Assembly: GCA_043810775.1 (NCBI GenBank)
Contig: JBDRNU010000009.1
Coordinates: 1-36,009, forward strand
Direction of reading: 5' to 3'
From: an archaeon
Lineage (GTDB): Archaea > Nanobdellota > Nanobdellia > Pacearchaeales > GW2011-AR1
Length of the DNA stretch: 36,009 nt
Positions 6,105 to 34,700 of the stretch are shown piece after piece (position 1 is the first letter of the stretch; every line of letters begins with the position of its first letter). A program made the position numbers and the translations under genes. The notes under the pieces are model-generated. The model had not been told where the DNA came from. It saw nothing but the letters and a program-made list of their open reading frames with translations, and did not search any database.

Positions 6105-6158
6105 AATAAAAAGTATTTATTTTAATATTTAAAGATTTATATTCTAAATTAGTTATCT

Positions 6159-6452: not shown

Positions 6453-6492
6453 AATTAAATAAGTTAACAAAGTGTTTATAAATATTTATATT

Positions 6493-7053: not shown

Positions 7054-7127
7054 TCTGAATATAGCAAAATTTAGTTTATAAAGGTTTCCAAGAAAGCTTT
7101 AAATAATCTCGCTTAAAAATTAAGTAT

Positions 7128-13457: not shown

Positions 13458-13464
13458 TCAATTT

Positions 13465-14064
13465 ATGGACATGAGATTTTCGCAAAAAGAAATTAAAGAT
13501 TTGTTTTTCGCGTGGATAATTATTTCTCTAGCTTTTGCTATATTATTTTCAGGTGGATTAAACTTTTTTAGTTCAATTAATAAATTTATTATTACCCTGG
13601 GGATTTCAGCATTTACTGTTGGAGTGGGATTTTTAGCTCATGAACTAATGCATAAGTACTATGCTCAAAAGTACAGATGCTGGGCTGAATTTAGAGCTTT
13701 TTATAATATGCTCTGGCTTGCATTAGTATTTTCCTTGTTTGGATTTATATTTGCAGCTCCAGGAGCAGTAGTAATTAGGGGTTACTTAAATAAGAGGCAA
13801 AACGGCATAATTTCCTTAGCTGGCCCTGCAACGAATATTGTTTTAGCAGTTATATTCTTAGTTCCCTTATTTATATTAAGACCTGAGGGGATACTGAATC
13901 TTTTTTTCAGCTACGGCTTGACTATTAATGCTTTACTTGCGCTATTTAATATGATTCCAGTAGCTCCGTTTGATGGGGGTAAAATTTATAACTGGAATAA
14001 AACTATATATACTATCAGCATTTTATTAGCATTAGGCTTATTTATCTTAAGCTTTATTTTATAA
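13465..14064 (+). CDS. Site-2 protease (peptidase M50)
   Basis: LAHELMH, ISLAGPATN, FNMIPVAPFDGGK; multiple TMs. Start probably 13465 or 13471 rather than 13339. Confidence 0.9.
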   Translation: MDMRFSQKEIKDLFFAWIIISLAFAILFSGGLNFFSSINKFIITLGISAFTVGVGFLAHELMHKYYAQKYRCWAEFRAFYNMLWLALVFSLFGFIFAAPGAVVIRGYLNKRQNGIISLAGPATNIVLAVIFLVPLFILRPEGILNLFFSYGLTINALLALFNMIPVAPFDGGKIYNWNKTIYTISILLALGLFILSFIL

Positions 14065-14117
14065 ACATCAAAAAAATTTTTCAAAAACTTCAAAAATTAA
14101 ACTTGAAAATTTATGAT

Positions 14118-14357
14118 ATGACAAAAGAAAAGAAAATAATTGTGTACTCAACACCAACTTGTCCTTGGTGCCATAGGGTGAAAGACTGGCTTAAAGAGAA
14201 AAAGATAAAATTTGAAGATATTGACGTATCTGTAAATGAAGAAAAGGCAAGAGAGATGGTTAAAAAGTCAGGGCAAATGGGAGTTCCTGTTATTGAAATT
14301 GATGGAAAGATGATTGTAGGCTTTGACAAAGATAGAATAGAAGAGGCTTTAAAATAA
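14118..14357 (+). CDS. Glutaredoxin-like protein (NrdH/YruB family)
   Basis: YSTPTCPWC, SGQMGVPVI, IVGFD; ATG at 14118. Confidence 0.93.
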   Translation: MTKEKKIIVYSTPTCPWCHRVKDWLKEKKIKFEDIDVSVNEEKAREMVKKSGQMGVPVIEIDGKMIVGFDKDRIEEALK

Positions 14358-14372
14358 GATCCAGCAGTATAT

Positions 14373-14813
14373 ATGCAAGAGTTTATTGAAAGTTTAATGC
14401 AAGAGCATGAAAGTATTGAAAGAGAGCTGGTAGAATTAGAGACAATAATGCAGAGTAGAATTCTAAATTATCCAAATTTAATTCATGTATTTAAGAAGTT
14501 AAGGAATATTTGGGACCATCATGAGGAAAAAGAGGAAAAAGTTTTTCCGCAGCTAAGAAAACAAAGATTACTAGTTTCTATTGAAAAAATGATATTTGCA
14601 CATCAAAGCCTTAGGCCCCATAAAGATGCCATAACTCATGCAATTAATGCAGGCAATGATTTTGAAATAAGAAGAACTTTAAATGTCAATGGAAAGGTGA
14701 TAATTGAAAAGTTAAGAGAACATATTAAGAATGAAGAAGATGAACTATTTACAGCTGTATTAGACAGTTATTCATTAGAAGATTTAACTACAATTTGGGC
14801 GTCAATTGATTAG
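14373..14813 (+). CDS. Hemerythrin-like (HHE) domain protein
   Basis: LMQEH, HHEEKEEKVFP, AH, EHIKNEEDELF: the H-HxxxE-H-HxxxE pattern. Confidence 0.8.
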   Translation: MQEFIESLMQEHESIERELVELETIMQSRILNYPNLIHVFKKLRNIWDHHEEKEEKVFPQLRKQRLLVSIEKMIFAHQSLRPHKDAITHAINAGNDFEIRRTLNVNGKVIIEKLREHIKNEEDELFTAVLDSYSLEDLTTIWASID

Positions 14814-15676
14814 CGTTTTTTCTTTTTAGAAGTTCTTTTTATAACTTTTTCTTTCATTATTTTGACTTTTCTGTAAATGATTATAGTTAAGATAAGTATA
14901 ACTATCAGGACAATTAAGAAAAATACTACAAACCATGTATCTACTGTTACTGGACCGAAAATAGGGAAGTCTATTATTGCTATTCTTTCTTCACACTCTC
15001 TTTTTTCAATTTTCAAATCCTCACACTCATTATTATCTATACACTGCCTCTGCTGTATGCTATTTTTGCAAGATGACCATTCTGAACAAGACCAGTCTGC
15101 AATGCAAATGTCAAATTCAGAGTCATCTAAAACATTGGTACAGCCAGGGTCGCCTAGAAAATCTATTTTGCCATCATTATCATTGTCAATTCCGTCATTG
15201 CACTCCCTAGGGGGAAACTGCTTTTCTTTATCTCCCCCAATATGCTCAATTGGAGGAGGTTCATAAGAAGTGCATAAAGATTCATTAAAATAACAATTAG
15301 CTGTGCAGTTAAGAATACCAGAATTATATCCTAGAGTAATACAAGTTTGATTATTTAGATTGATTAAGTCACATTCTTCACCAGGATTTACATTACTATC
15401 CCCACAATAGTATTTAATTTGAAATGTTCCAGAAACATCAAAAGCTAAAACTAACTCTAAATCTGATTTAAAAAAATCAAAAATCTTTTTAAAAAAATTT
15501 TTTATGTATTCAAAAAAGCCCGGTTTTTCTAATTCTTGAGGCTGGTTGAGAGTATCATTACCTTCAATAACTTCACCTGTTATTACAAATCTGCCTGTTA
15601 CTGTCCTGGCTGAAATAGGCACAATTAGCATTATTAAAAATACAACTAAAAATAATGAAAAAAGCAGTATTCTCAT
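14810..15676 (-). CDS. Secreted, C-terminally anchored Cys-rich surface protein
   Basis: Signal peptide; CGDSNVNPGEECD disulfide repeat; CNDGIDNDNDGKIDFLGDPGC Ca-binding-like repeat; WSCSEWSSC TSP1-like segment; C-terminal TM plus basic tail. Confidence 0.8.
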   Translation of the reverse strand: MRILLFSLFLVVFLIMLIVPISARTVTGRFVITGEVIEGNDTLNQPQELEKPGFFEYIKNFFKKIFDFFKSDLELVLAFDVSGTFQIKYYCGDSNVNPGEECDLINLNNQTCITLGYNSGILNCTANCYFNESLCTSYEPPPIEHIGGDKEKQFPPRECNDGIDNDNDGKIDFLGDPGCTNVLDDSEFDICIADWSCSEWSSCKNSIQQRQCIDNNECEDLKIEKRECEERIAIIDFPIFGPVTVDTWFVVFFLIVLIVILILTIIIYRKVKIMKEKVIKRTSKKKKR

Positions 15677-15677
15677 T

Positions 15678-16205
15678 TTATTTACTTTTTCTTTTTCTGT
15701 ACAAATAGATTACTATTATTGCTAGAAGTATTATGATAACTATTGATAAAATTACTATTATTGGAAGATAGTAACTTGGTTTTATAGGTTCATATAAATT
15801 TTGTTTTGACCTTTCTGAAACTGCAGTTACTGTAATTGGCAGCCCGCAAGTATTAAGGGGAATTGTTGTTCCTCCTATACCTATAGGCTCACATAACATA
15901 CAAAAACGATGTTCATACTGTCCGTATGGAGCATCCTTAGATAGAGCCACTTGGCCTTCAATATTAAATCTCTGGTATTGACCTATAGTGTAGTTTGGTT
16001 CAAGTGTTATTGCCAGGTATTCATTAGGACCAATATCTGGAGTACATATTACATCAGTATGCTCTGAAGCTATTTTTAAGATAAATCCAGTTGTTTCTCC
16101 TGGTTTTAGCTCCATATTCTGCGGCTGAGGAACATACACTGCTGTTGAACTTGCTAAGCTAACTAAGAAAAATGCACAAAGCAATATTAAGATTGTTTTT
16201 TTCAT
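15678..16205 (-). CDS. Membrane-anchored Ig-like surface protein (DUF916/PapD-like pattern)
   Basis: Signal peptide MKKTILILL, ELKPGETTGFILKI, SKDAPYGQY, C-terminal TM plus RKRKSK. Confidence 0.65.
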   Translation of the reverse strand: MKKTILILLCAFFLVSLASSTAVYVPQPQNMELKPGETTGFILKIASEHTDVICTPDIGPNEYLAITLEPNYTIGQYQRFNIEGQVALSKDAPYGQYEHRFCMLCEPIGIGGTTIPLNTCGLPITVTAVSERSKQNLYEPIKPSYYLPIIVILSIVIIILLAIIVIYLYRKRKSK

Positions 16206-16206
16206 T

Positions 16207-18033
16207 TTATACAACATCAATAGTAATAGTTATTCTTGTTTCATAGGTTCCTGGCTCTAAACCAAGTGGAGGCATTATATGAAAATAAGTATTAAGAGTT
16301 TCATCTAGAGAAGGATTATTACAAGACATTACATCACAAACATCTAATCCTCCAGCAGGGAAAAATGGCACGTCAACTGGAGATTCTAAAATATTTGAAG
16401 AGGCTAATCCAATGTCTTCAAATAAGGCAGAATCATCATCAATTGAAAAGTTCGAGTCAGCTGACAGATCCCAACAGGTTGTATTGCTTGGACTGCAATC
16501 TCCCCCAGGTCCATCTAAAATAGGATCTTCTGCTGTCCAGTTAAGATTTAGAGCTACGTTTCCTGAATTATTTAGGTAAGATAAACATGTTCCGTTATTC
16601 CAGCTACCAAGCTGGACATCATCGCCACCACATTCAATTGGGTCTCCCAAGTCAACTGAAATTGGATAAGCTATACCATATAAAGGAGCATAGGTCCAGT
16701 TATAATTAAATAATAAGGTTGAGATTCCTGCTTGGCTTGAAGCATTTAGATATAATTTATAATCTTGAGGAGCTCTAAAAAATTCTATTCCCCTTGAATC
16801 TCCTGCTGGTATTGAAACTGAGAAATTGCAGAGCGTGCCAGAAGATGCTGAAAAAATAAGAGGATATGTAAAATTTGCACTTCCAGATAAGCAGGATTGT
16901 GGTGACGATGCATCAATCAGACATAGGGCTGCAGAAGCACCATGAATTACAGCTGAACAGTCACCATCAGTGTCATTAAATTCATAAATAATATTTACTG
17001 GAGCATAAGACTCTGACTCAGGATAGAGAAGACAGTACTGAGCTGCTTTTGTGCAGGTTACTTCATCTCCTGGAACATCCCCTATATAAACATCAGAAAA
17101 TTGAGGCAGATAATCAACTAGCTCAAAGAATGTATCATTAGAAGTAGAGTTTATTCCAAAATTATCTGTTGACCAGAGTCTTGTATAGGTAGTTGTTCTT
17201 GCATCTACTGCTCCTGGAGTTCCCCATGGAATTGGATTAGTGACTGTTGCTTGAGGATTAGCTAGTAAATAAGCTACTAGATATTCTTGTGCTCCTGGAG
17301 TTGCTCCAACATAAGCATTATAATTTAGAGTATCAGCTGGCCAGTGATCTTGACTTCCATCATCAGGGTCTGAACCTGTCCAGTTTATTTGAGGAGTTTG
17401 GTCGTGAGTTTCTTTCTGAACTAAGCCAGTAGGTATATTTGGCACAGAGTTTATTAGTATAAAAGAGTAAGAGTTTGTTGAGTTTTTTTGAGGAGTTCCA
17501 CTATCAGTTACATATAAATCAACATAAAATGTTTTACTGCAGAGACCAGTTACAAAGTTGCAGTCTGTATCTGAAAGTTTAATTATGTCTGTTGTTCCTG
17601 GACCAAGAGGGTCTGTACCATAAGTATAAGTTTGTGGTGAGTTTCTTGGAGAAGGAGATAGGGTATAATTAACTATTGTGCAAGCTTCGGTTGACAGGGG
17701 ATTTGAAACAGTCCCAATACAAATTCTAGTAGTTATCTGGTCTGGATTTGGATCTCTTACACGCCATCTTAGCTCTGTTGTCAGGTCGTGAGTATCTATA
17801 GGAGCAGAAGAATCCCAATTTGAACTGCCATCTCTAACTTCATATGAATCTGTATAAGGCGGCTCATTTGCCACCCTAAACCTACCTGTTGAAGTTTGCT
17901 GAGATAAAACTAGGTATGAAGAAATAATAATTATGATAAAACATAGTGCAATCACCTTCCTGCCAGAAATCCTTGATTTCTGGACACTATCAAAAAAGTT
18001 ACCACTCTCACTCCTCTTTTTTGAAGTTTTCAT
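16207..18033 (-). CDS. Large secreted beta-rich, Cys-containing surface protein
   Basis: Signal peptide, two THDxT..W..xDP Ig-like repeats, many N-x-S/T sequons; C-terminal half paralogous to the next gene; ends PGTYETRITITIDVV. Confidence 0.8.
   Translation of the reverse strand: MKTSKKRSESGNFFDSVQKSRISGRKVIALCFIIIIISSYLVLSQQTSTGRFRVANEPPYTDSYEVRDGSSNWDSSAPIDTHDLTTELRWRVRDPNPDQITTRICIGTVSNPLSTEACTIVNYTLSPSPRNSPQTYTYGTDPLGPGTTDIIKLSDTDCNFVTGLCSKTFYVDLYVTDSGTPQKNSTNSYSFILINSVPNIPTGLVQKETHDQTPQINWTGSDPDDGSQDHWPADTLNYNAYVGATPGAQEYLVAYLLANPQATVTNPIPWGTPGAVDARTTTYTRLWSTDNFGINSTSNDTFFELVDYLPQFSDVYIGDVPGDEVTCTKAAQYCLLYPESESYAPVNIIYEFNDTDGDCSAVIHGASAALCLIDASSPQSCLSGSANFTYPLIFSASSGTLCNFSVSIPAGDSRGIEFFRAPQDYKLYLNASSQAGISTLLFNYNWTYAPLYGIAYPISVDLGDPIECGGDDVQLGSWNNGTCLSYLNNSGNVALNLNWTAEDPILDGPGGDCSPSNTTCWDLSADSNFSIDDDSALFEDIGLASSNILESPVDVPFFPAGGLDVCDVMSCNNPSLDETLNTYFHIMPPLGLEPGTYETRITITIDVV
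17963..17983. repeat. Hairpin element in-frame inside CDS
   Basis: CCAGAAATC-CTT-GATTTCTGG, a perfect 9-bp stem of the same form as 5295-5315. Confidence 0.65.
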
Positions 18034-18072
18034 AATATATTCTTGTTAAAGTATTATTTAAATATTTCTATA

Positions 18073-19230
18073 TCAAGGAATCAGGATATTAATCTGAACT
18101 TTTCCTTCGTAATTTCCAAATGGAAGCTCTGGAATTCTCATATTATAGTATGTTGAAAATCTTTCTCCGACACTAGAATTGCAAGAATCTGAAATGCAGG
18201 TTTTTAGGTGAGGATATGGAGAAAAATATGAGACTGAATAATTAGTTATGTAAACTGGCCAGACACCTGTTTCTGAAGTCTCATTAAATAAAGAGTCGTC
18301 ATCAATCTGGAAAACTGGGTCTGGATAAGAGATTTGCCAGATGCCCGTGCAGTTAGGAGAGGTACAATTAAAATTTTCTCCCTGCCAGGTTAAATTAACC
18401 CCAATATTTCCAAAATTAATTAGAGAAATTCCTCCCAAGGGCCGAGCTGTCACCCATTTATTCATGTAAAGCTCACCAAAGTCAATTGAGTCAGTATAGT
18501 TTATTGTTGCAAGCATATTATATGTAAAATTAGTTTCATTGAAAATATTATCTGAAAGAGCAATTCTTAGCTTCCAGGTTCCAGGCTTGCGCCAAAACTG
18601 CAAAGTAGAATTCCCACGGTACTCATACATACAGTCTTGAGAACCTACTTTATAAGCATAGTTTAAGACAGCTGAATAAGTATAATTATTTTTATTGCAA
18701 TTAAAATAATTATTAGGAGAGCACAAGTAGGCATTTAAGCTATAATCCCCGCATTTCCTTGCATTTATTATTGAGGAAATAATAACACTTGAATTTTTAC
18801 CCTTTATAGGATTAACTAAAAGATGCTGATTTGGGCTGTCAAAATCAGTTATATCTGGCCTGTATACTTGCCATTGCTGTGGTGGTTGAGAAACTGTAAA
18901 AAAATCAATCTCATAGTCTGCAATCTGGTAGTCCCAGGTTGCAAAATAGTACTGGCCTTCAAAGCTTTGAGGGACAACATAATTAATAGTTTGCTTGGTA
19001 TTGCAAGGGTCACTGCAACTAACTAGGATTGCATCTACTAAAGTTGTGTTCTGCATTACAGGGATAACTGGACGAAATCCGAACTTTTTATTGGGATTAA
19101 TTGTAATAGAAATTGTTTCTCCTGGATAAACAGAGCTAGCACTTATAGTAGTAATTGCGCAAACTAATTCTAAAGTAAGAACTATGAAAACCAGAGTGCA
19201 AAATATTAAAGCCAGAGTTTTTAGATGCAT
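18073..19230 (-). CDS. Secreted beta-rich surface protein, paralog of 16207..18033 C-terminal region
   Basis: Signal peptide; LQFWRKPGTWKL, NFGNIGVNLTW, IDDDSLF, GNYEGKVQINIL; many sequons. Confidence 0.8.
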   Translation of the reverse strand: MHLKTLALIFCTLVFIVLTLELVCAITTISASSVYPGETISITINPNKKFGFRPVIPVMQNTTLVDAILVSCSDPCNTKQTINYVVPQSFEGQYYFATWDYQIADYEIDFFTVSQPPQQWQVYRPDITDFDSPNQHLLVNPIKGKNSSVIISSIINARKCGDYSLNAYLCSPNNYFNCNKNNYTYSAVLNYAYKVGSQDCMYEYRGNSTLQFWRKPGTWKLRIALSDNIFNETNFTYNMLATINYTDSIDFGELYMNKWVTARPLGGISLINFGNIGVNLTWQGENFNCTSPNCTGIWQISYPDPVFQIDDDSLFNETSETGVWPVYITNYSVSYFSPYPHLKTCISDSCNSSVGERFSTYYNMRIPELPFGNYEGKVQINILIP

Positions 19231-19673
19231 TGTTTTATATTGCTATATTTAGGAGCCCCTTCATAGCATAGTATTTTTTCCTGCTGAAGTCTTGGAACTA
19301 CATAAATTTCTTTTATTGGCTCTGTGATGGGTTCCTGGAAAATTACATAAGCTGTTTTTGATTCAAATCCCCTGATAGTTGTTCCTGGAATTGTAGGAGC
19401 TTTTGATGTTTCTCCAGCTCCAAAATTAATTAATATGAGCAAGAAATCCCCAAGAAGGACATTTTTATTATTTTTAACATCAACCTTGAGTATATTATTT
19501 TCATAGCAAGCGTCTAAAATTGCAACATCCATATCCTGAAGACATGAAAACTGAGTAGAATCATCATGAACACTAAATTTCTGGATTACCAAGGCCATTA
19601 TCAGAGAAAAAATTGCAGCTAAGAGTATCAAGAAAACCATGACTATAAGTGTCGAAACTCCTCTTTTTCTCAT
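19221..19673 (-). CDS. Archaeal type IV pilin-like protein (class III signal peptide)
   Basis: MRKRG|VSTLIVMVFLILLAAIFSLIMALVI: basic leader, G at -1, hydrophobic helix; C-terminal IYVVP. Confidence 0.75.
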   Translation of the reverse strand: MRKRGVSTLIVMVFLILLAAIFSLIMALVIQKFSVHDDSTQFSCLQDMDVAILDACYENNILKVDVKNNKNVLLGDFLLILINFGAGETSKAPTIPGTTIRGFESKTAYVIFQEPITEPIKEIYVVPRLQQEKILCYEGAPKYSNIKQCI

Positions 19674-19714
19674 TTTCTCATTTAATATAATATACAAGAA
19701 AAAAGTTGTTTAAA

Positions 19715-20542: not shown

Positions 20543-20624
20543 TTTATATATATCACTTATTTCTAATCCTAATCCAATACAACAAATTGTATAAAAAAAG
20601 GTTGAGGTATACAATATATTGTAC
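20543..20624 (+). promoter_or_regulatory. TATA box and tandem NrdR boxes
   Basis: TTTATATA 20543-20550; ATACAACAAATTGTAT 20577-20592 and ATACAATATATTGTAC 20609-20624, 32 bp apart, matching the palindromic acaCwAtATaTwGtgt consensus. Confidence 0.82.
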
Positions 20625-20630
20625 TTTAAA

Positions 20631-21068
20631 ATGTTATGTCCTTACTGTAAAAATTCTGAAACGAAAGTAACTGATAAAAGAGATGCTGAAAAATTAACTA
20701 GGAGAAGGAGAGAATGCCTGAAATGTTCAAAGAGATTTACAACTTATGAGAGATTTGAACTAGGGAATTTTTATGTTATCAAGAAAGATAAAAGAAGAGA
20801 GATATATAACAGGGACAAATTATTATTAGGATTTGTCAAGGCTTGTGAGAAGCGTCCTGTAAGCCATGATAAAATTGAAAAAACTGTAGGTGAGATTGAA
20901 GAAAAAATCAGCAAAAAGAAAGAAATTGAAAGTGACATTATAGGGGAGATGGTTATGAAAGCACTGAAAAAAATAGACAAGGTAGCATATATCAGGTTTG
21001 CTTCTGTGTACAAGGATTTTCAGGACGTAAATGACTTTAAGTCAGCTATGAAGGAGGTGGGAAAATAA
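20631..21068 (+). CDS. nrdR: Transcriptional repressor NrdR (Zn ribbon + ATP cone)
   Basis: CPYC...RRRRECLKCSKRFTTYE, VIKKDKRRE, DKVAYIRFASVY; ATG at 20631. Confidence 0.96.
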   Translation: MLCPYCKNSETKVTDKRDAEKLTRRRRECLKCSKRFTTYERFELGNFYVIKKDKRREIYNRDKLLLGFVKACEKRPVSHDKIEKTVGEIEEKISKKKEIESDIIGEMVMKALKKIDKVAYIRFASVYKDFQDVNDFKSAMKEVGK

Positions 21069-23680
21069 TGGCAGAAGTAATCAAGGATTTGCCTGACTAT
21101 ACGGGAGAAATAGATATTTCCAAGGTTTTTGGAGAAAATGGAGTGTATATGCTTGAAAAAAAATATCTCCTTAGAGATGATACTGGAAATGTTATTGAAA
21201 GTCCTTTAGAAAGAGTTTATACTATTTGCAGAAGAGCGGCGGAGATTGATAGGGGTTACGGAGCGAGCGAAGAAAAAGTTGATGAACTGACAAAAAACTT
21301 TTTTAGTATGATAGTGAATAGGGAGTATTCACCTGCTGGAAGAATTTGGTCTAATGTTGGTTCAGATATTCTTGCTCTTTTTAATTGTTATGTTCTTCCT
21401 ATTCCTGACGATACAGAAGGAATATATGAGGCTGTTAAGAATGCTGCAATTATTCATAAAAATGGCGGGGGAACTGGGTATAATTTTTCAACTTTAAGAC
21501 CAAGAGGAACTTATGTTAAAAAATCAAAAGGGCTAGCTTCTGGACCAGTGTCTTTTATTGGGCAGTTTGATAAAGAAACTGAGATTATTAATTCTGGAAA
21601 CAGGAGAGGGGCAAATATGGCTGTTTTTGATGTTTATCATCCTGATATTCTTGAATTTATTTATGCAAAAACACTTGAAGGAGAGCTTCAGAATTTTAAT
21701 ATTTCTGTTGGAGTTAGCAATGAATTTATGAAAAAAGCCAAGGAGGAAGGTTATTACACGCTAAAATTTCCTGATGAGCAACCTTTTACTAAAGATAAGC
21801 TTGAAGATATTATCAGAAACATTGAAGAAAATAAGCTCGGAGGAGCTGATGTAGGCAAGAAACCCAGACCAGCTTCATTAAAGCTAGATAAAAATGATAT
21901 AATTGATACTTATACTGACAAGGTTATTGGGAGAGTTAATGAGGAAGGATATGTCCAGCTAAAAGCTGATTTGCTATTAGATAGAATGGCTGAGCTTGCA
22001 CATAAAACAGGTGATCCTGGAATGATTTATCTTGACAGGATTGAACAAGATAATCCTCTGCCTTCTGCAGGAAAACTTAATGCAACTAATCCCTGCGGTG
22101 AACAACCACTTCATCCTTATGATGCCTGTAATTTAGGAAGCATAAATTTAGAGAAGATGATTGACAGAGAAGATGTTGACTGGGAAAAACTCAAAAATAC
22201 TGTGTGGCATGCGGTAAGATATCAAGATAATATAAATGACCTTAACAAAGGACCAATAAAACAAATAGAAGAAACTGTCAAGAGAAACAGAAGAATTGGT
22301 TTGGGAGTGATGGGGTGGGCTGACATGCTAGCTCAATTTGAAATTCCTTATGATTCTGGCAAAGCTTTTGAACTTGGGGAAAAGGTTATGAGTTATATTA
22401 GTGAGGAAGCAAAAAAAGCTTCAGCTTCACTAGCAAAAGAAAAAGGAGTGTTTCCATCATATGAAGAAAGCACTTGCAATACAGGGAATGAAGAAGATAG
22501 AGTCAGAAACTTGCAGAGGACAACAATTGCACCTACTGGAAGCATTAGTAATTTATTTGAAGTAGCTAGCGCAATAGAACCTTATTTTGCAGTAGGATAT
22601 ACAAAAAATCTAAGAGGTGGAGACAAATTATATTTCTTAAACAGGCATTTTTTAGGGGCTTTGAAAAAAAGAGGCTTTGATGAAGAGCAAATTACAAAAA
22701 TCAAAAGAGAAGTTGAACAAAAAGGTGGAAGCTGTCAAGAAATAGGAGAAGTTCCAGATGATTTAAAAGCGGTATTTAAAACTGCAATGGAAATTAGATA
22801 TGATAAGCATATTGAAATGCAGGCTGCATTTCAGAGAAAAACTGATAATGCTGTTTCTAAAACAATAAATATGCCTGAAGATGCAACAATAGAAGATATA
22901 AGGAAGGCATATATTCGGGCGTGGGAGTTGGGATGCAAAGGGGTCACTATATATAGGGATAAGAGCAAGATGGTCCAGGTATTAGAAGGAGGGGTAAAAG
23001 ATTTAGAGGAGAGAGTTGAAATTGTCATGAATGATGTTCCTATTAAAAGCAATGCAATGAAATTAGCTCCTTTTGCCAGACATTACAAAGTTAATAGAGG
23101 TAAAGATACATTCCACATAATTGTATCTTCAAAATTATATAGGGACAAAAGTGATACAAACAGGTACTTTGCAATTCCTAATGCAGTATTTCAGTTAATA
23201 AGGCCTCTTGGAACAGAAGAGGCAGCTGAGTTTGCTCAATCAGGACTAGACAGGACTAAAGTTCTTCAAGCTTCTGATCCAGATTATTTAGAATTTGCAC
23301 AAGACCTTAAATCTGTAAGAGGTGATAAAGCAGAGGGATTTGGACTCGGAAGAGTTGAAAGCCCTTCTCATGCTGTAGGCATGGCTATTGAGCATTTATT
23401 GTTAAGCTATGGCTTGATTGGATGGGAGGATGCTGGTGAAATTAAAAAAATGGCGGTAAAGGTGAAAAAAGGTGAGCTGGAAAAAGTAGATGATAAAGAA
23501 GCTTTAGAAATAATGAAAAGATATCAAAGTCAGGGAGAAAGAGTTGATTTTGACCCAAGAGGAATTAGAAAAATTGAATTTAGATGCGGAAAATGCAGTA
23601 ATACAGAATATATTATGGAAAGTGGATGCAGAGACCCTGTTTGCAAGGGATGTGGATGGAGCTTAGGAAAGTGTGATTAA
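21068..23680 (+). CDS. nrdJ: Class II (adenosylcobalamin-dependent) ribonucleotide reductase
   Basis: LFNCYV, GGGTGYNFS, RRGANM, TNPCGEQPL, CNLGSINL, TTIAPTGSIS, AVSKTIN, KGVTIYRD; C-terminal Zn ribbon; no beta subunit nearby. Confidence 0.93.
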   Translation: MAEVIKDLPDYTGEIDISKVFGENGVYMLEKKYLLRDDTGNVIESPLERVYTICRRAAEIDRGYGASEEKVDELTKNFFSMIVNREYSPAGRIWSNVGSDILALFNCYVLPIPDDTEGIYEAVKNAAIIHKNGGGTGYNFSTLRPRGTYVKKSKGLASGPVSFIGQFDKETEIINSGNRRGANMAVFDVYHPDILEFIYAKTLEGELQNFNISVGVSNEFMKKAKEEGYYTLKFPDEQPFTKDKLEDIIRNIEENKLGGADVGKKPRPASLKLDKNDIIDTYTDKVIGRVNEEGYVQLKADLLLDRMAELAHKTGDPGMIYLDRIEQDNPLPSAGKLNATNPCGEQPLHPYDACNLGSINLEKMIDREDVDWEKLKNTVWHAVRYQDNINDLNKGPIKQIEETVKRNRRIGLGVMGWADMLAQFEIPYDSGKAFELGEKVMSYISEEAKKASASLAKEKGVFPSYEESTCNTGNEEDRVRNLQRTTIAPTGSISNLFEVASAIEPYFAVGYTKNLRGGDKLYFLNRHFLGALKKRGFDEEQITKIKREVEQKGGSCQEIGEVPDDLKAVFKTAMEIRYDKHIEMQAAFQRKTDNAVSKTINMPEDATIEDIRKAYIRAWELGCKGVTIYRDKSKMVQVLEGGVKDLEERVEIVMNDVPIKSNAMKLAPFARHYKVNRGKDTFHIIVSSKLYRDKSDTNRYFAIPNAVFQLIRPLGTEEAAEFAQSGLDRTKVLQASDPDYLEFAQDLKSVRGDKAEGFGLGRVESPSHAVGMAIEHLLLSYGLIGWEDAGEIKKMAVKVKKGELEKVDDKEALEIMKRYQSQGERVDFDPRGIRKIEFRCGKCSNTEYIMESGCRDPVCKGCGWSLGKCD

Positions 23681-23751
23681 GAAAAGGATATTTCCTAAAA
23701 TATAGTTTAACTTGTAATATTATTTATAAATAAATTAGGATATGAAAAACA

Positions 23752-24906
23752 ATGGCTGAAAAAACTGGTGAAGAAGTTTATTCATTTGAACAAAAAAACT
23801 TGCCTGATACTCTTAAAATAAAATATACTAGTGATGAGGGAACTAGAAATTATGATTTTTCTCCAATAATTCATGTAAGTGGAGAGAGTATGCCTGAGAC
23901 TATGGAAAAAGCCTGTCTTCATCTTGCAAGAAAAGGGCTGGTTTACAGAAGAAGTGATGAAAAAGATAATGCCTGGCAAGTTGAAGCTAAGATGATTATG
24001 GAAATAAGAAATCCTGATGCTGACCCTTATACTCACTTGAGATTTGCAGGCAGTAATGGCTTGGGGCAGGGATTACTAGATTATTTATATGAGTTTATGG
24101 GTGCTAAAAGATTTTGGAAGCCTGATGCTGATGATCCTAAAGACACTAGGTGGGAATACACTTACTTTGGTTCTTTAAGCGAGTATGCTGGAAGCAAAGG
24201 ACCAATTGACCAGATTGAAGCTGTAAAGCAGAAATTAATTGAGAGGCCAAATACTAGGAGAGCTCAGGCAATTACCTGGCATCCTGAAAGAGATTTGGAA
24301 AATCAGCACACTCCTTGTTTGCAGAGAATACGTTTTTTAGTTACGCCTGGAGATAAAAGAGCTAGATTAGATATGCAGTATGATTTTAGAACAAGAAATG
24401 TCATGACTGCTGCTTTTGGAAATATCATGGGCCTTTATATTTTAGGGTGTGATGTAAGAGATGCTGTTGAACAAGGCACTGGAATTGAGTTAGATATGAG
24501 AATGATAGACAGTACAGATACATTTCATGTTAATTCAAGAGAGTTTCCTGTTTTTATGAATTCTGTCAGGCAGGTTGTGAATAAGAAAAAAAGCGGCCAA
24601 CCCTTAAGCAAGAGAACTTGGAAAAGGAGTTTAGTCATTGATGACTTGCTTAGCCACAGAGATTATACTGAGAAGTTTTTAGTTGATAAAACTACTAAAA
24701 TGGCTGAAGAGTATGAAGGAAGAAAGCAAAGAAAAGTTGAGCAAATAAGGCAAATTCCTCAAGAAAATATGATTAGAAGAAATGAATTATTAAAAGAGCT
24801 TGATGCTATTCCTCAAATTAATGTTGAAAAAGAAACAGAGAGGACACATAAAATTGGTGACAGGATTTTTTACTTGCTAGATAAATATTCACCTGAAAAA
24901 AGATGA
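23752..24906 (+). CDS. Thymidylate-synthase-fold enzyme (archaeal ThyA-like, divergent)
   Basis: WEYTY, RRAQAITW (R169/R170), PCLQ (C189), R213-T-R-N216...N224, H259. Confidence 0.8.
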   Translation: MAEKTGEEVYSFEQKNLPDTLKIKYTSDEGTRNYDFSPIIHVSGESMPETMEKACLHLARKGLVYRRSDEKDNAWQVEAKMIMEIRNPDADPYTHLRFAGSNGLGQGLLDYLYEFMGAKRFWKPDADDPKDTRWEYTYFGSLSEYAGSKGPIDQIEAVKQKLIERPNTRRAQAITWHPERDLENQHTPCLQRIRFLVTPGDKRARLDMQYDFRTRNVMTAAFGNIMGLYILGCDVRDAVEQGTGIELDMRMIDSTDTFHVNSREFPVFMNSVRQVVNKKKSGQPLSKRTWKRSLVIDDLLSHRDYTEKFLVDKTTKMAEEYEGRKQRKVEQIRQIPQENMIRRNELLKELDAIPQINVEKETERTHKIGDRIFYLLDKYSPEKR

Positions 24907-25670
24907 GTGACCAATTAGTAGAAAAAATTGAAATTCAAAAAGAGTTTGGCTTTCCTGAGTTGAGAAAGAGGATGAGAAAAGTCCAACTTAAAGGATTTCC
25001 TGATGTTTGTGTATATGAAGGAAGTGATTTTGATTTAGTCAGGCTTAATCCTGAAGGAATTAGAAAACAGATTAGCACTCCACAACCGGCAACTTACCGA
25101 GACCATTTAAATAGAATTGGTGAGATGGCTAAATTATTTTCTGAAAAAGGAATTGATATTTTTAATTTAAATGGGGGAGTAGATTATATTGCATTTAAGC
25201 CAGGGGACAGTGAAGGGACATTATGGACTGTGATTCCACCTGTTGTTGAAAGTTTTTATATGAATGCTGGAACTTTTCATGATCACTATGAATCTATGAT
25301 GGACTCAAGATTAAATAGTGAACTAAAATCTAAAGGGCTTGCAGTAAATCCAGAATTAAAAAATTTAAAAAAAGATAGAGCAGAAACTGTGAGATTAATT
25401 AATGACGGAAGCCATAGGGTTCATTATGCTGTTGATACTGGAATTTCTCAGACTTTATTAGTAGCTAGTGGAATTAAAGAAGGGTGGCCTTATTATGCTG
25501 CTCCACAGTCGTATGAGCTAGTTGACATTCTTCCTACCAGGCCTGAAGATGGGGGTGCAGGAAAGATACATGTGGTTACGAGCCCTGGACATAAAATGCT
25601 TTATAGATTATTTCCAAGCGGGGGTATTAACAGTGGGACAGTCAGACCAGACAAGAAGGCCACGCTTTGA
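24903..25670 (+). CDS. Uncharacterised protein with ParB/Sulfiredoxin-like DGxHR motif
   Basis: IPPVV ... RLINDGSHRVHYA; ATGA overlap with the TS-fold gene. Confidence 0.6.
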   Translation: MSDQLVEKIEIQKEFGFPELRKRMRKVQLKGFPDVCVYEGSDFDLVRLNPEGIRKQISTPQPATYRDHLNRIGEMAKLFSEKGIDIFNLNGGVDYIAFKPGDSEGTLWTVIPPVVESFYMNAGTFHDHYESMMDSRLNSELKSKGLAVNPELKNLKKDRAETVRLINDGSHRVHYAVDTGISQTLLVASGIKEGWPYYAAPQSYELVDILPTRPEDGGAGKIHVVTSPGHKMLYRLFPSGGINSGTVRPDKKATL

Positions 25671-26316
25671 AGCTGTTGGATTTGATTTAGACAATACTTT
25701 ATATCCTTCTAGCGATAAAATTCAGGAATTTATTAGAGGTGAAATTGCTAGAGAAATTGGACAGGCAATTAATGTAAGTCAAGAAGAGGCTAGAGAACTT
25801 TTTGAAAGATTATACGCTGAGATAGGATCAGGAACTAGAGTTCTCAAAAAAATTGCTGAGGAGTATGCTGTTGAATTAGATGCTGATTATATTGTGCAAT
25901 CAGCTCTTGAGCAAGAAGAAGTTATTAACTTAGTCAAGCCTGACAAAAGATTGCAACCATTTTTAGAAGATATTGCAAGAAGAGTTAATGGAAGAATTGA
26001 TTTACTGACTGGCAGTCAAAGACATGTTGCTTTTGGAAAATTAGAAAGATTGGGTGTGAGTCCAAGTACGTTTGTATATCAAATTTGTGGAGATTATAGT
26101 AAAGTTAATGGAGATATGTTTAAAGAGTGGATTAGATTAAGACAAATGGCTCCTGGCAGGTTATTGTATGTGGGTGATAATGTTAAGGCAGATATTATTC
26201 CTGCAAATGAGTTAGGGCTTTATACTTGCTTAGTTGGGAAAGAAGATAAAAGAGCTGAGTTTTGCATTGAAACTGTTTATGATTTAGTGGAGGTTTTAGA
26301 TGGTACTAGTAAGTGA
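25633..26316 (+). CDS. HAD-superfamily phosphatase/nucleotidase
   Basis: FDLDNTLY (motif I), LLTG (II), SK (III), YVGDNVKADIIPA (IV). In-frame GTG at 25633 follows GGGGGT; start uncertain. Confidence 0.85.
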   Translation: MGQSDQTRRPRFEAVGFDLDNTLYPSSDKIQEFIRGEIAREIGQAINVSQEEARELFERLYAEIGSGTRVLKKIAEEYAVELDADYIVQSALEQEEVINLVKPDKRLQPFLEDIARRVNGRIDLLTGSQRHVAFGKLERLGVSPSTFVYQICGDYSKVNGDMFKEWIRLRQMAPGRLLYVGDNVKADIIPANELGLYTCLVGKEDKRAEFCIETVYDLVEVLDGTSK

Positions 26317-26770
26317 AATTAAGTATAAACCTAATATAGTTATTGGGAGTTGTCCAAAAGATTCTGATGAGGTGGTTGGAGTTTTAAGAGATGTGAAAAA
26401 AGATTTAGCTGAAGTAGATATTAGTATTAAAGGCTTAAATTTAAAACAAATTCTAGAAATTGCTGGTAGAAATGGTTTTTTATTAGATAATAAAGAAGGG
26501 CCTGGTGTAATTCAAGTAAAATTTGATTCTGTCAGGCCTTATTTAAGAGTATATCAAGAAAATACAGGTGAAGGTTGTAAATCTTGTGCACACTATGCTC
26601 TTCACAAACCTCAACCTGATGAAACTTTTGCTTATTGTTCAATTCTTGAAGATAAATCAGATGCAACTAATAACCATTCTCCAATTATAAGAGGCTATAT
26701 GGAAACAGGATGTTTAAGCAAGGCAGATAGATTTCAAATAAAACCTAAAGATCTTGAAGGAATGTTTTAG
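26300..26770 (+). CDS. Hypothetical protein with C-terminal Cys cluster
   Basis: GGAGG SD upstream; GCKSCAHY...YC...GC. Confidence 0.6.
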   Translation: MVLVSEIKYKPNIVIGSCPKDSDEVVGVLRDVKKDLAEVDISIKGLNLKQILEIAGRNGFLLDNKEGPGVIQVKFDSVRPYLRVYQENTGEGCKSCAHYALHKPQPDETFAYCSILEDKSDATNNHSPIIRGYMETGCLSKADRFQIKPKDLEGMF

Positions 26771-27289
26771 CTATTTCTCATCGCCGGATTTTACATTTTT
26801 TAAAAACCTCATTACATCTTCATTAGTTACTCTAACTTGATAAAGAACATTGCCTAGTTCTGGGTTAAGGAGACACTCTTCTGTTAGAGATTCTGGTTCT
26901 TTATAGTGAAAAGAGTATACTACTTTTTTGATTCCTGCTTGCACTATATCTTTTGCGCAATTTCCACAAGGATAGTATTTTGTATATAAGGTGGCTCCTT
27001 GTAAACTTTCCACTTTCCTATTTAACAATGCATTTTTTTCTGCATGAACTCCTATACATATATTCTGACCTTTTTCACTATATGTGGATCCATGTCTTTC
27101 TTTTCTGCAACCAGCATCCACACAGTTTTGCAGTCCTGTTGGTGCACCATTGTATCCTTCTCCAACAACTGTATGAGCAATAGTGAGAATTGCTCCCCCA
27201 TGAATATGCTTGCATGTTGAACGTGTTGCAGCCACTAGTGCAAGAGCCATAAAATATTGATCCCAGATAGGTCTATCTCTTCTATCCAT
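26771..27289 (-). CDS. dCMP deaminase (ComEB family)
   Basis: RPIWDQYFM, RSTC, GYNGAP, VHAEKNAL, YPCGNCAK, AGIKKVVY. Confidence 0.92.
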   Translation of the reverse strand: MDRRDRPIWDQYFMALALVAATRSTCKHIHGGAILTIAHTVVGEGYNGAPTGLQNCVDAGCRKERHGSTYSEKGQNICIGVHAEKNALLNRKVESLQGATLYTKYYPCGNCAKDIVQAGIKKVVYSFHYKEPESLTEECLLNPELGNVLYQVRVTNEDVMRFLKNVKSGDEK

Positions 27290-27428
27290 AAATTTTGATA
27301 ATTTTTATTTTATTAACAATTCGTGCAGTGAAAAATATACATTAGAAGATATGAGAAGAATTAGAAAACTTTAAATATCAAGCAAATACTAAGTTAGTCA
27401 TGTGTAAAACTAAGAGGTGCAATATAAG

Positions 27429-27761
27429 ATGGCATCAAGTAAGAATGGAGTTGAGGAAATTACAGGGAATAATATTGAAGAAAGACTTGAAAGACCTCTT
27501 GTAGTTATAGATTTCTTTGCAGAGTGGTGCATGCCTTGCCTGATGATGGCTCCGGTTATTGAAGAGTTACATGAAAAATTAAAGGAAAAGGTTACTTTTT
27601 TTAAGGTAAATGTGGATGATAATCCTGAGATTGCCAAAAAGCTGAAAGTTGCTTCAATCCCTACTTTAATAATTTTTAACAAAGGCCAGGAAAAAGAGAG
27701 GCTAATAGGAAGCTTATCAGCTGATGTAATTGAAGATAAGATTATTCGATTTTTAGAGTAA
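27429..27761 (+). CDS. trxA: Thioredoxin
   Basis: DFFAEWCMPC, SIPTLIIF; GAGGTG SD before the ATG at 27429. Confidence 0.92.
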   Translation: MASSKNGVEEITGNNIEERLERPLVVIDFFAEWCMPCLMMAPVIEELHEKLKEKVTFFKVNVDDNPEIAKKLKVASIPTLIIFNKGQEKERLIGSLSADVIEDKIIRFLE

Positions 27762-27799: not shown

Positions 27800-27922
27800 G
27801 GATCCGTAGCTCAGTTGGCTAGAGCACCGGCCTTTTACAAAAAACGAAGTTTTTTGTCCTTCAAAAAAACAGTGTTTTTTGAAGTAAGCCGGGTGTCGTG
27901 GGTTCAAGTCCCATCGGATCCA
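27800..27922 (+). tRNA. tRNA-Lys(UUU) with 49-nt intron at canonical 37/38 (27838-27886)
   Basis: Acceptor GGATCCG/CGGATCC, D arm GCTC/GAGC, anticodon stem CCGGC/GCCGG with CT-TTT-A, T arm GTGGG-TTCAAGT-CCCAT. BHB central helix CUUU/GAAG with 3-nt bulges. No encoded CCA. Confidence 0.93.
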
Positions 27923-31734: not shown

Positions 31735-34700
31735 ATGCCGGAAATAATTAAAAAACAAGTAAGAGCAATCTCATTTAGCTTGCTCTCTCCTGAATTAATT
31801 AAAAAGATTTCTACAGCTAAGATTATAACTCCTGAACTTTATGATGTTGATGGATATCCAGTAGATGGGGGACTTATGGACTTAAGACTTGGAGCAATAG
31901 ACCCTGGAGTAAGATGTAGAACTTGCGGGGGTGGATTAAAAGAGTGTCTTGGACATCCTGGAAGTATTGAATTAGCCAGACCATTAATACATGTAAAATA
32001 TGTTCCTTTAATTGAGCTGTTCTTAAGAAGTTTTTGCGCAAGTTGTGGAAGAGTCATGCTTCTTGAAGAAGATGCAAAAAAACTTAATCTTAAACAGAGA
32101 ATCAAGAAATCAAGAGACTCAAAAAAATGCCCGCACTGCCAGAGTCCTCAAGAAAAAATTAAATTAGAAAAGCCAAGCACTTTTCATTCTGGAAAAAGAA
32201 GAATTTTTCCAACTGAGATAAGAGAGAGATTTGTAAAAATAACAAATGAAGATTGTAAATTAGTGGGTGTTAATCCTATAAATTGCAGACCTGAATGGGC
32301 GATAATCTCCTTGCTCTTAGTTCCCCCAGTTACAGTTAGACCAAGTATAACTTTGGAATCTGGAGAGAGAAGTGAAGATGATTTGACTCATAAATTAAGT
32401 GATATTATTAGGGCTAATCAGAGATTATGGGAAAATTTAAATGCCGGAGCTCCAGAGGTTATAATTGAGGACCTTTGGGATTTATTACAGTATCATGCTA
32501 CTACTTTCTTTGATAATACTATTTCAAGGATACCTCCTGCAAGACACAGGAGTGGACAGCCACTAAAAACTATAACTGAAAGAATAAAAGGTAAGGAGGG
32601 GAGAATTAGACATAATCTTGCAGGAAAAAGAGTTAATTATTCTTCTAGAAGTGTAATTAGCCCTGATCCTTTCTTAAAGATAAATGAAATTGGAGTTCCG
32701 CTGGTGATTGCAAAGATAATAACAGTTGCTGAACAAGTTAATTCACTAAATATAGAACAACTCAAGAAACTTATTGAAAGTAAAGAGTATCCTGGAGCAA
32801 ATTATATTATTAGACCAGATGGAAAGAGAAAGAAAATCACTGATGACTTAAGAGAGGAAATAATAGAAGAATTAACTATAGGATATATAGTTGAAAGACA
32901 CTTGCAAGACGGAGATGTTGTATTATTTAATAGACATCCTTCTCTTCATAGAGCTAGTTTAATGGCACATTTTGTGAGAGTGCTTCCTTGGAAGACATTT
33001 AGACTTCACCCTGCTGCTGCAGCTCCATATAATGCTGATTTTGACGGTGATGAAATGAATATTCATTCTCCACAGACAGAAGAAGCCAGAGCAGAAGCAA
33101 AAGTACTTTTAGATGTAAAAGAAAACTTAATCTCCCCAAAAAATAATACTAATATGTTAGGATGCATTGCAGATGCGGTTACAGGCAATTATTTATTAAG
33201 CACTAATTCTGTTTTAAAAGAAGACGCTTCCCAGATATTATTTGAAACCGGAGTTGAAGCAGCATTTTCAAAAAAAGAAATTAGTGGCATAGAAGTTTTT
33301 TCAAAAATACTTCCTAAGATAGATTTTTCGGAAAAAAATGTCAAGATTAAGAACGGGGAATTTATAGAGGGAGTTGTTGATAAAAATACTTTCGGAGTAG
33401 AAGATGGGGCTCTTATTAAATACCTTGACAAAACTGTTGGAAGAGATGAAACAATTGAGACTTTAAGAAAAGCCTTTGCTTTAGGCACAAGCTATCTTTC
33501 AAAAAATGGGGCAACTATTTCTTTAGGAGATTTAGAAGTAAATGAAAAAGTAAAGAACAGTGCTCATGAAATTATTAAAAGTGCTGAAGAAAAAACACAA
33601 AAAATTATTAGTGCATATTATAATAACAGTCTTGAACTAATTCCTGGAAAATCCAAAGAAGAAAGCAGAGAAATAAAAATTCTACAGTCTTTAAATGAGA
33701 TTAGAACAAAAATAGGAAATATTGTCAAACAAGAATTTCCTAAAGATAATCCTGCAAGTAATATGATTTACTCTGGTGCGGGAGGTAATATCCTTAATGT
33801 GACTCAAATTGCTTGTTGTGTTGGCCAGCAGGCATTATGGACTAAGAGAATAGGATTTGGATTTACAAATAGAACATTATCTTTTTTTAAAGAGGGAGAT
33901 TTATCTCCTTTGGCTAGAGGGTTTGTTTATTCTTCTTACTCTCAAGGATTGAGACCTATGGAGTTTTTCTTTGGAGCAATTACTGGAAGAGATGGATTAA
34001 TGGACCTTGCATTAAGAACTCCAAAATCAGGATATATGTACAGAAGACTAGCTAATGCTTTGCAAGATCTAAAAGTAGAATATGATGGAACTGTAAGAGA
34101 CGCTTCTGGAAACATAGTGCAATTTCTTTATGGAGAGGATGGAATTGATGTTACAACTTTACATTCTGGCAAGCCAATATCTCCTGGAGAAGCTATAGGA
34201 ATAATTACTGCCCAATCTTTTGGTGAGCCTTCAACTCAGATGGCATTAAATGTATTCCACTTTGCAGGAGTTCAAGAGATGCAGATTACGTTAGGACTTC
34301 CTAGATTAATAGAAATATTTGATGCAAGAAAAATGCCTTCAACTCCTGCTATGGAAATCTATCTTGATAAGGAAAAGAATAATGAAAAAGATTCAAGAAT
34401 AGTTGCTGAGAAAATAAAGCAATTTCAATTTGAAGAAATAGCTTCTGAGATTAAAATAAATTTTTCTGATAAAAAAATTGATGTTGAATTGAATCCTGAA
34501 GCACTTAAACAGATTCATGCCAATACAAGCACTATTTTAGACAGATTAAAAGATATGGGTTTTAAAGTAAAGATTAGAGGAAATATAATTTATACAACCA
34601 ATACTAAACTTGACTTTAAAGAGTTGTTTAAACTTAAAGAAAAACTGAAAAAAGCTGTTATTTCAGGTGTGGAAGGAATTGAACAGGTTTTGGTTGTAAA

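Follow-up and report, generated by a model that had tools for sequence, protein, structure and literature searches.

A 36,009-nt stretch of archaeal DNA (hereafter the window; ~33% G+C), whose genes have their nearest relatives in metagenome-assembled genomes (MAGs) of Nanoarchaeota, Woesearchaeota and Pacearchaeota, encodes side by side a divergent protein of the thymidylate synthase (TS) fold, a ParB-CE protein of family PF24392 and a HAD-IA phosphatase. We found that they occur together as a fixed unit, the triad, in a deoxypyrimidine context, and the window appears to carry one copy of a conserved housekeeping deoxypyrimidine module of these three archaeal groups. For its function we tentatively favor, with a probability of roughly 40%, an archaeal-type ThyA accompanied by a ParB-CE/HAD pair that would trim deoxypyrimidine di- and triphosphates to monophosphates. 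An earlier reading of the same DNA (the original prediction) had listed the genes in the order nrdR, nrdJ, a 71-nt gap, the TS-fold gene, a DGxHR protein (here ParB-CE), HAD, a Cys-rich open reading frame (ORF) and a convergent dCMP deaminase; all of these genes were confirmed, in this order and at the positions given in Table 1, by ORF listing and family scans.

A fixed unit of three genes

We scanned one genome per species with an alignment of 27 ParB-CE homologues and obtained 25 loci (L001-L025), in which neighboring genes were called by tblastn with the window proteins and by Pfam scans; the fetched flanks represent ~1-2% of each genome, and the counts below refer to these 25 loci. All loci came from DPANN-type MAGs (Nanoarchaeota, Woesearchaeota and Pacearchaeota), including one that is labelled 'bacterium' and has an archaeal RpoB. 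A TS-fold gene adjoined the ParB-CE gene in every locus, and a HAD gene adjoined in 24, the contig of the remaining one (L018) ending 155 nt past ParB-CE. The original prediction had proposed a gene-neighborhood survey among its checks and would have been refuted in part by a lack of conservation of the DGxHR and HAD genes beside TS/RNR genes; here both proved to be conserved beside TS, in favor of that prediction.

The triad occurred in two layouts. In layout a, shared by 15 loci and the window, a TS-fold protein of ~300-420 aa (TSa) is followed by ParB-CE and HAD, commonly with overlapping reading frames, as in the 4-nt overlap of the TS and ParB-CE genes in the window and a 4-nt overlap in L012. 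In layout b, found in 10 loci, the order is a different TS-fold protein (TSb), HAD and ParB-CE. A maximum-likelihood tree of 26 ParB-CE proteins resolved two clades with 100/100 support, and these coincided exactly with the two layouts, requiring a single change on the tree (0 of 500 label shuffles gave a number as low). Since related sequences tend to share labels, we take this match to reflect a long-standing and stable linkage, and not strict co-evolution.

The flanks of the triad placed it among genes of deoxynucleotide metabolism. A catalytic subunit of ribonucleotide reductase (RNR) was present in 12 loci, 10 of them with a class II-like or class I enzyme and 2 with class III. Thioredoxin was found in 9 loci, with glutaredoxin in 1 further locus, and NrdR in 8. 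Genes for dCMP deaminase accompanied the triad in 5 loci, dUTPase in 3 (L003, L004 and L012), NUDIX in 3, dCTP deaminase-like genes in 2 (L012 and L017) and a ThyX-like gene in 1 (L004, 3 kb downstream of the triad). The NUDIX proteins, all from layout-b loci, had a pyrimidine dNTP diphosphatase (NudG-like) as best match, at 49.8 bits and below cutoff. Counting RNR, NrdR, dCMP/dCTP deaminase, dUTPase and ThyX, at least one such gene lay in the fetched flank of 17 of the 25 loci. Furthermore, the loci were core cellular neighborhoods with RNA polymerase, ribosomal protein and tRNA synthetase genes. The first of the two readings in the original prediction was a compact dTMP pathway with non-orthologous steps, and in view of the triad linkage and the 17 of 25 flanks it is fair to speak of a compact pathway for deoxypyrimidines in which accessory steps are non-orthologous. 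It had also remarked that dUTPase, DHFR and dTMP kinase were not visible, and Pfam scans of the 41 window ORFs detected none of the three; for dUTPase this does not extend to the relatives, in which dUTPase (3 loci), dCTP deaminase (2) and ThyX (1) were found beside the triad. Tmk, Tdk, DHFR and SHMT were absent from the 249 flanking ORFs scanned across the 25 loci, which cover a small fraction of each genome, and from the 41 window ORFs.

The proteins of the triad

The TS-fold protein of the window is a divergent archaeal-type ThyA. It matched PF00303 at 28.0 bits (cutoff 24.3), and TIGR03283, a model for thymidylate synthases of the methanogen type, was its best curated match, the 81.8 bits falling under the cutoff of 174.55. 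Direct sequence search against solved structures was marginal (E 0.15), and a family profile then gave an alignment. An AlphaFold2 (AF2) model built from 15 homologues (pLDDT, the predicted local distance difference test, 87.8) yielded 396 Foldseek matches in the PDB at E<=1e-3, the best at E 2.5e-11 and probability 1.00, and all of the matches listed were thymidylate synthases. Among the 15 TSa homologues Cys189 (in the motif PCLQR), Arg213, Asn224 and His259 were invariant and Arg169 nearly invariant, and these residues aligned with the positions PC (the nucleophile), RS, PFN and H of Lactobacillus casei TS. The TSa family has retained the nucleophilic Cys and the dUMP-binding set, namely an Arg pair, the Arg-Ser motif, Asn and His.

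A second set of ThyA elements, which we take to contact folate or to close the active site, comprises the Trp pair of YGSQWRAW, the RSxD Asp, the HxY Tyr and the closing C-terminus. In TSa the consensus YHERLxxY stands opposite YGSQWRAW of L. casei ThyA, Asn216 stands opposite the Asp of RSxD, Ser or Asn replaces the Tyr after the conserved His, and a ~100-aa helical extension occupies the place of the segment that closes the ThyA active site in the AF2 model. By alignment and model, the Trp pair, the RSxD Asp and the closing C-terminus, with the roles presumed above, are not kept in TSa.

The synthase of layout b is built differently. TSb is 480-497 aa long and consists of an N-terminal domain of ~190 aa, a TS core and a C-terminal PterinBD-DUF4346, the last of these in all 10 loci. 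Four TSb cores that were compared with TIGR03283 scored 64-124 bits, and the TSa and TSb cores were homologous by hhalign (probability 98%, E 1.3e-13). For the N-terminal domain an MtrA-like identity was considered and rejected, as the resemblance was not significant (E 0.25). The triad synthases share with the methanogen/archaeal-type ThyA of TIGR03283 the TS fold, the Cys in a P-C motif, the Arg residues that bind phosphate and the Asn that reads uracil. Among curated models TIGR03283 matched TSa and TSb alike best, yet both remain under its cutoff, and they are unlike that type in the helical tail of TSa, in the N-terminal and PterinBD-DUF4346 domains of TSb and in their constant association with ParB-CE and HAD. 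Archaeal ThyA enzymes have been called poorly characterized in biochemical terms (PMC9012536, PMC9931769), and the triad bears on the use of one-carbon (C1) carriers by archaeal ThyA enzymes. The next-closest relatives of the TS-fold protein of the window were ~280-aa proteins named 'thymidylate synthase' at source (P0285-P0388; E ~1e-23 to 1e-29) from Planctomycetota (Thermoguttaceae), Lentisphaeria and Verrucomicrobia, and from the size of this set archaeal-type ThyA seems to be widespread in these bacteria.

The second protein of the unit, with its DGSHR motif, had been regarded as an orphan. We found instead that it belongs to PF24392 (ParB-CE), its sole Pfam match at 50.8 bits against a cutoff of 23, and that it has 147 homologues at E<=1e-3 in a word-index search and 306 at the same threshold in a profile search of 1.84 billion representatives. 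No NCBIfam model matched it, and no solved relative was found by sequence (best E 1.4). Of the 306 matches, the 25 at E<=1e-30 were DPANN-type proteins of ~250 aa and the remainder were much weaker. Other members of the family are mostly ~200 aa long, align in two stretches and are without the ~45-aa insert of the DPANN clade. The motifs PPxVE, DGxHR and YPYYA as well as Lys221 and Arg235 are common to DPANN-type and bacterial or phage ParB-CE proteins, ten columns were invariant across 6 DPANN-type and 14 other members, and the DPANN clade has TPQP, SPGHK and PSGGI as additional invariant motifs.

The ParB-CE family was reportedly predicted to degrade nucleotides. 'CE' stands for conflict effector (PMC12871103), and related clusters labelled 'ParB-like catalytic effector' in the Atlas are bacterial and viral. 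The DPANN proteins score above the Pfam cutoff for this family and keep its family-wide invariant residues, but they are set apart by the insert, by the additional motifs and by a housekeeping deoxynucleotide operon in place of conflict systems. A setting of conflict or defense effectors was not seen in the window or the 25 loci, where the neighbors were TS, RNR, deaminases, RNA polymerase and ribosomal proteins. Likewise, neither the window ParB-CE nor a member of the bacterial/phage type (P0147) had a relative among 50,697 phage records. The analogy to phage pathways drawn in the original prediction thus found no support in ParB-CE matches or in the core cellular character of the loci.

The structure model of the window ParB-CE was of high confidence (pLDDT 90.9), and its Foldseek matches in the PDB were weak: the best was Atu1540 (E 0.1, probability 0.51, TM 0.21-0.27), with the ParB-N domain of pNOB8 and the serine kinase SerK lower in the same list. 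ParB hydrolyzes CTP and acts as a nucleotide-dependent switch, and the ParB/Srx fold is also used by the ADP/ATP-dependent phosphotransferases SerK, SbnI and sulfiredoxin (PMC12704722). With the ParB CTPase clamps of ParABS, Noc and KorB the window protein may share a distantly related nucleotide-binding fold and an Arg-containing phosphate motif, the structural similarity being weak; unlike those clamps it has no helix-turn-helix (HTH), no dimerization domain, no match to PF02195 and no parA neighbor. A role as a partition protein was rejected on these same absences, no ParA being found among the ORFs scanned. A protein of 462 aa (P0121), a strong match and a single representative, begins with ParB-CE, which a linker connects to an intact and full-length dCMP deaminase domain, and this fusion places ParB-CE at the dCMP step.

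The third protein has all four HAD motifs (DxD, T/S, K and GDxxxxD), with Asp18, Asp20, Thr126 and Asp187 invariant in 24 sequences and Lys157 present in at least 90% of them. Its nearest solved relatives were SSM1/Sdt1, a pyrimidine nucleotidase from yeast (E 2.8e-7), and an XMP phosphatase from a plant. The window HAD scored 60.9 bits against the Sdt1-type pyrimidine 5'-nucleotidase model TIGR01993 (cutoff 142.9) and fell below every curated equivalog cutoff, so that the Sdt1 type is to be read as its nearest relative only; the HAD of L004 reached 60.7 bits, below cutoff, against TIGR02254 (YjjG-type non-canonical pyrimidine nucleotidase). Another candidate phosphatase for deoxynucleotides is encoded in the window at a distance of ~19 kb from the cluster, an HD-domain protein (4680-5261, +) that matches YfbR-like 5'-deoxynucleotidases (PF13023, 89.6 bits; PF12917, 30.6 bits).

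A candidate trimming step and competing explanations

In the scheme that we favor, material would flow from NrdJ through HAD and ParB-CE to dCMP deaminase and on to TS. ParB-CE and HAD would form a two-step phosphohydrolase pair acting on products of the reductase (dCTP/dCDP, possibly dUTP/dUDP) and yielding the monophosphate that dCMP deaminase and TS would then consume, and the TS-fold enzyme would methylate dUMP to dTMP with a pterin C1 donor bound differently from that of bacterial ThyA. This reading draws on the CTPase activity of ParB (PMC12704722), on the deaminase fusion in P0121 and on a precedent for CE and HAD proteins acting together. In the PUA-Calcineurin-CE-HAD (PUA-Cal-HAD) defense system, a conflict-effector phosphoesterase and an adjacent HAD convert dNTP to dNDP to dNMP, the HAD taking dNTP to dNDP and the CE taking dNDP to dNMP (PMC12871103). 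The triad resembles that system in encoding side by side a candidate CE-type phosphoesterase and a C1-cap HAD with intact motifs, and is unlike it in having neither a PUA sensor nor a calcineurin domain, in its metabolic rather than defensive setting and in being known here from its genes.

Several points weigh against this scheme. No enzyme activity for PF24392 was found in the literature searched, the ParB/Srx fold of ParB-CE was recovered weakly and also includes the kinases SerK and SbnI as well as sulfiredoxin (PMC12704722), and the fusion to the deaminase has one representative. Where dCTP deaminase (L012, L017) and dUTPase (L003, L004, L012) adjoin the triad, dUMP can be reached from dCTP without further enzymes, and a dedicated trimming pair looks redundant there; the NUDIX proteins of the three layout-b loci could do the same trimming job. 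With ThyX nearby in L004, the TS-fold gene is not always the sole synthase candidate. Furthermore, the invariant partner of ParB-CE and HAD is TS and not the deaminase, and a step directly before or after TS therefore fits as well as the supply of dCMP.

Such a step is what ParB-CE would perform as a phosphotransferase, either as an analogue of dTMP kinase acting after TS or as a deoxyuridine, thymidine or deoxycytidine kinase that loops with the HAD nucleotidase to feed dUMP to TS. We consider this the strongest competitor, although doubtful. Besides the phosphotransferases of the ParB/Srx fold (PMC12704722) and the invariant linkage to TS, it would account for the missing Tmk, which was not seen among the flanking and window ORFs though most other enzymes of the dTTP pathway appear there; flanks of this size say little about the absence of tmk from a genome. 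A loop of this kind has a parallel in Trypanosoma brucei, where the loop of a 5'-nucleotidase and thymidine kinase is essential for de novo dTTP synthesis (PMC5098729), but a kinase always co-transcribed with an opposing nucleotidase would amount to a futile cycle. The fusion of ParB-CE to dCMP deaminase would suit a deoxycytidine kinase, whereas the dTMP kinase step is not next to dCMP deaminase, and PF24392 is named as a family of conflict effectors, the reported prediction for which is breakdown of nucleotides.

Less probable still is that TS is ordinary and that the two other proteins perform no pathway step, being either a sanitizing pair that removes dUTP or non-canonical pyrimidine nucleotides or regulators of deaminase and synthase that sense dCTP and dTTP. 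The below-cutoff match of the L004 HAD to the YjjG type is in line with sanitizing. The switch behavior of ParB (PMC12704722) is in line with regulation, and fusion to dCMP deaminase, a member of an allosterically regulated class, would suit a nucleotide-sensing domain. Against both versions, linkage in 25 of 25 loci and frame overlap with TS are better explained by a stoichiometric pathway partner than by a general house-cleaner, and the putative catalytic residues are invariant.

A more radical departure, which we hold to be improbable and which was the second reading in the original prediction, is that the TS-fold enzyme hydroxymethylates C5 or modifies it in some other way and that ParB-CE and HAD act on the altered nucleotide or clear away the usual one, giving a modified pyrimidine in DNA. 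In an equally improbable specific form, the triad would put another C5 group (e.g. hydroxymethyl) on dUMP, ParB-CE would phosphorylate the product or activate it in another way, HAD would clear the canonical nucleotide and ThyX would supply dTMP where present, as in L004; the genomic DNA of a whole DPANN lineage would in that case contain an analogue of thymine that is non-canonical. Phage thymidine hypermodification includes kinase and phosphatase steps, and the triad loci share with the phage pathways to 5-hydroxymethyl-dUMP (5-hmU) and hypermodified thymidine a TS-fold enzyme together with dCMP deaminase, RNR and phosphate-handling enzymes. In the same direction point the presumed cofactor-binding positions of bacterial ThyA that TSa has not kept, the helical extension that stands in for the closing C-terminus of ThyA, and the coexistence of ThyX and dUTPase with the triad in L004. 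But the closest curated model is a thymidylate synthase (TIGR03283, 64-124 bits), the uracil-reading Asn224 is invariant, and ThyX was seen in 1 of 25 flanks, which leaves the triad TS as the only synthase candidate in view at most loci. Moreover, the triad, unlike those phage pathways, belongs to cellular genomes, lies in core neighborhoods in 25 species, has no phage matches and is known from gene content; no glycosyltransferase, aminotransferase or DNA-level modification gene was found near it among the ORFs scanned in the 25 loci.

Finally, we regard as highly improbable that ParB-CE and HAD are an antiviral dNTP-depletion system that stands beside TS by coincidence, for although PF24392 is a 'conflict effector' family whose wider membership is dominated by bacterial and viral proteins, and CE and HAD pairs deplete dNTPs in defense (PMC12871103), there is no sensor domain and no defense gene nearby, the linkage to TS holds across both layouts among neighbors such as RNA polymerase, ribosomal proteins and tRNA synthetases, and the DPANN clade stands apart from the other members by its insert and by its scores.

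Each protein of the triad lies in a known superfamily, and PF24392 and PF14251 are already defined in Pfam. What would be new is a thymidylate pathway with two unrecognized, obligatorily linked accessory enzymes, the chemistry of which we infer. Thymidylate synthesis is essential and usually regarded as a solved pathway. That two uncharacterized enzymes are tied to the synthase in all 25 species, which belong to a major reduced-genome archaeal radiation, suggests an obligatory reaction near dUMP or dTMP that has so far gone unrecognized, and the thymidylate pathway of these cells is probably described only in part. The ParB-CE family, so far only predicted as immune effectors, would gain a housekeeping relative, and its fixed metabolic context makes the substrate of such a relative much easier to guess and test. 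Full-text literature searches, which did not cover the founding CE-effector paper, found no description of the triad or of a housekeeping role for ParB-CE, and nothing relevant on PF24392/ParB-CE, DUF4346/PterinBD or 'ParB-like catalytic effector'. The founding paper itself (Nicastro et al., Nucleic Acids Res 2023, doi 10.1093/nar/gkad879), which introduced CE effectors, reportedly traces effectors to housekeeping homologues in its abstract and may already touch on this. A survey of the ParB fold (PMC12704722) does not mention DPANN, PF24392 or ParB-CE, and its preprint does not appear to mention 'thymidylate synthase'.

The locus in the window and further observations

The gene cluster of the window is collected in Table 1. 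The ORF of nrdR (20619-21068) opens with TTG at 20619, and its likely start is the ATG at 20631, where the NrdR profile begins; the likely start of HAD is the GTG at 25633, which gives a length in agreement with homologues. The nrdJ product has a Cys-rich tail at its C-terminal end, and HAE and PCxxC motifs are visible in the dCMP deaminase translation. The thioredoxin gene, the product of which is likely the reductant of the RNR, is followed by a tRNA gene and rpoH-rpoB-rpoA.

Table 1. Features of the deoxynucleotide gene cluster in the window
Feature	Position	Strand	Evidence
Two NrdR-box-like palindromes, 14 nt each	20578-20591 and 20610-20623	+	both perfect pattern matches
nrdR	20631..21068	+	TIGR00244, 173.3 bits (cutoff 124.65)
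nrdJ, B12-dependent class II ribonucleotide reductase, 870 aa	21068..23680	+	TIGR02504, 607.9 bits (cutoff 399.95)
Spacer, 71 nt, A+T-rich	23681..23751	+	sequence read
TS-fold gene, divergent archaeal-type ThyA (TSa), 384 aa	23752..24906	+	PF00303 and TIGR03283 matches, fold model
ParB-CE protein, 255 aa, DGSHR motif	24903..25670	+	PF24392
HAD-IA phosphatase	25633..26316	+	four catalytic motifs; start uncertain, frame open from 25522
Cys-rich ORF, 156 aa	26300..26770	+	no family match
dCMP deaminase, 172 aa	26771..27289	-	PF00383, 71.0 bits
Thioredoxin	27417..27761	+	family scans

The locus had been described as NrdR-controlled, and this holds for one part of it. The two NrdR-box palindromes lie directly upstream of nrdR, overlapping the start of its ORF, with their centers 32 nt apart, and the motif was present just upstream of nrdR in all 8 nrdR-bearing loci, whereas the 200 nt that precede the TS gene contained no NrdR box in any of 26 cases (the window and the 25 loci). 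NrdR control is thus supported for nrdR-nrdJ only. The number of boxes in the window was not above chance, as at least 3 matches with at most 1 mismatch arose in 36 of 100 shuffles. The 71-nt spacer is without an NrdR box and has a TATA-like stretch, TTTATAAATAA, ~25 nt before the TS start codon, which might act as a promoter; read-through from nrdJ into the triad is possible.

The Cys-rich ORF, which overlaps HAD by 17 nt and abuts the dCMP deaminase stop to stop, had been counted as a member of the gene set. We dropped it: it had no Pfam or NCBIfam family, no useful match among solved structures, no homologue in a 5.8-billion-protein index (near lengths searched) and no counterpart by tblastn in any of the 25 related loci. 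Atlas scores were at most 0.76 and its own structure model was poor. It is an orphan outside the conserved unit and may not be a functional gene.

Some neighborhoods of the triad had features of their own. In L004 a 441-aa ThyX-like protein (13288-14613, +) with two Thy1 stretches scored 83.3 bits against TIGR02170, just below the cutoff of 87.9, and its gene shares a cluster with NrdD, NrdG, TSa, ParB-CE, HAD, dCMP deaminase, thioredoxin and dUTPase. Of the two dCMP deaminase copies in L015, one (6110-7117, +) is a fusion with a P-loop kinase-like domain. This protein is similar to NF041025, a model of anti-phage dCTP deaminases, with a score of 111 bits that stays under the cutoff, and its gene lies directly upstream of the second, stand-alone deaminase and the TSb-HAD-ParB-CE triad. 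RNR genes much longer than nrdJ of the window were found in L002 (4877-8827), L008 (10068-13628), L013 (11521-14469) and others; their tblastn matches fell in separated pieces, compatible with inteins or large insertions. Several layout-b loci have toxin-antitoxin genes (ParE, MazF/PemK, MazE, PIN) within a few kb of the triad (L007, 102-1292; L023, 5747-6795; L016, 6190-6591), and chorismate mutase is found near the triad in L014 and L024.

Elsewhere in the window, prephenate dehydratase, a prephenate dehydrogenase-like gene and a chorismate mutase domain follow in a row (3-2284, +). They make up a fragmentary pathway for aromatic amino acids, in a genome that looks reduced in other respects. 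Three consecutive ORFs of 608, 385 and 158 aa (16207-19697, -) begin with hydrophobic segments at the N-terminus, are rich in Cys and Asn-x-Ser/Thr sites and match no Pfam family; they may encode surface proteins. The tRNA gene downstream of thioredoxin (27800-27922, +) was found by Rfam (58.3 bits) and missed by ARAGORN, and from its length of 123 nt it is presumably intron-bearing. Most archaea split the largest subunit of RNA polymerase into A' and A''; in the window it is one ORF of 1160 aa (31735-35217, +) with Rpb1 domains 1-5, and L015 likewise has a single ORF of 1135 aa (14981-18388) for this subunit.

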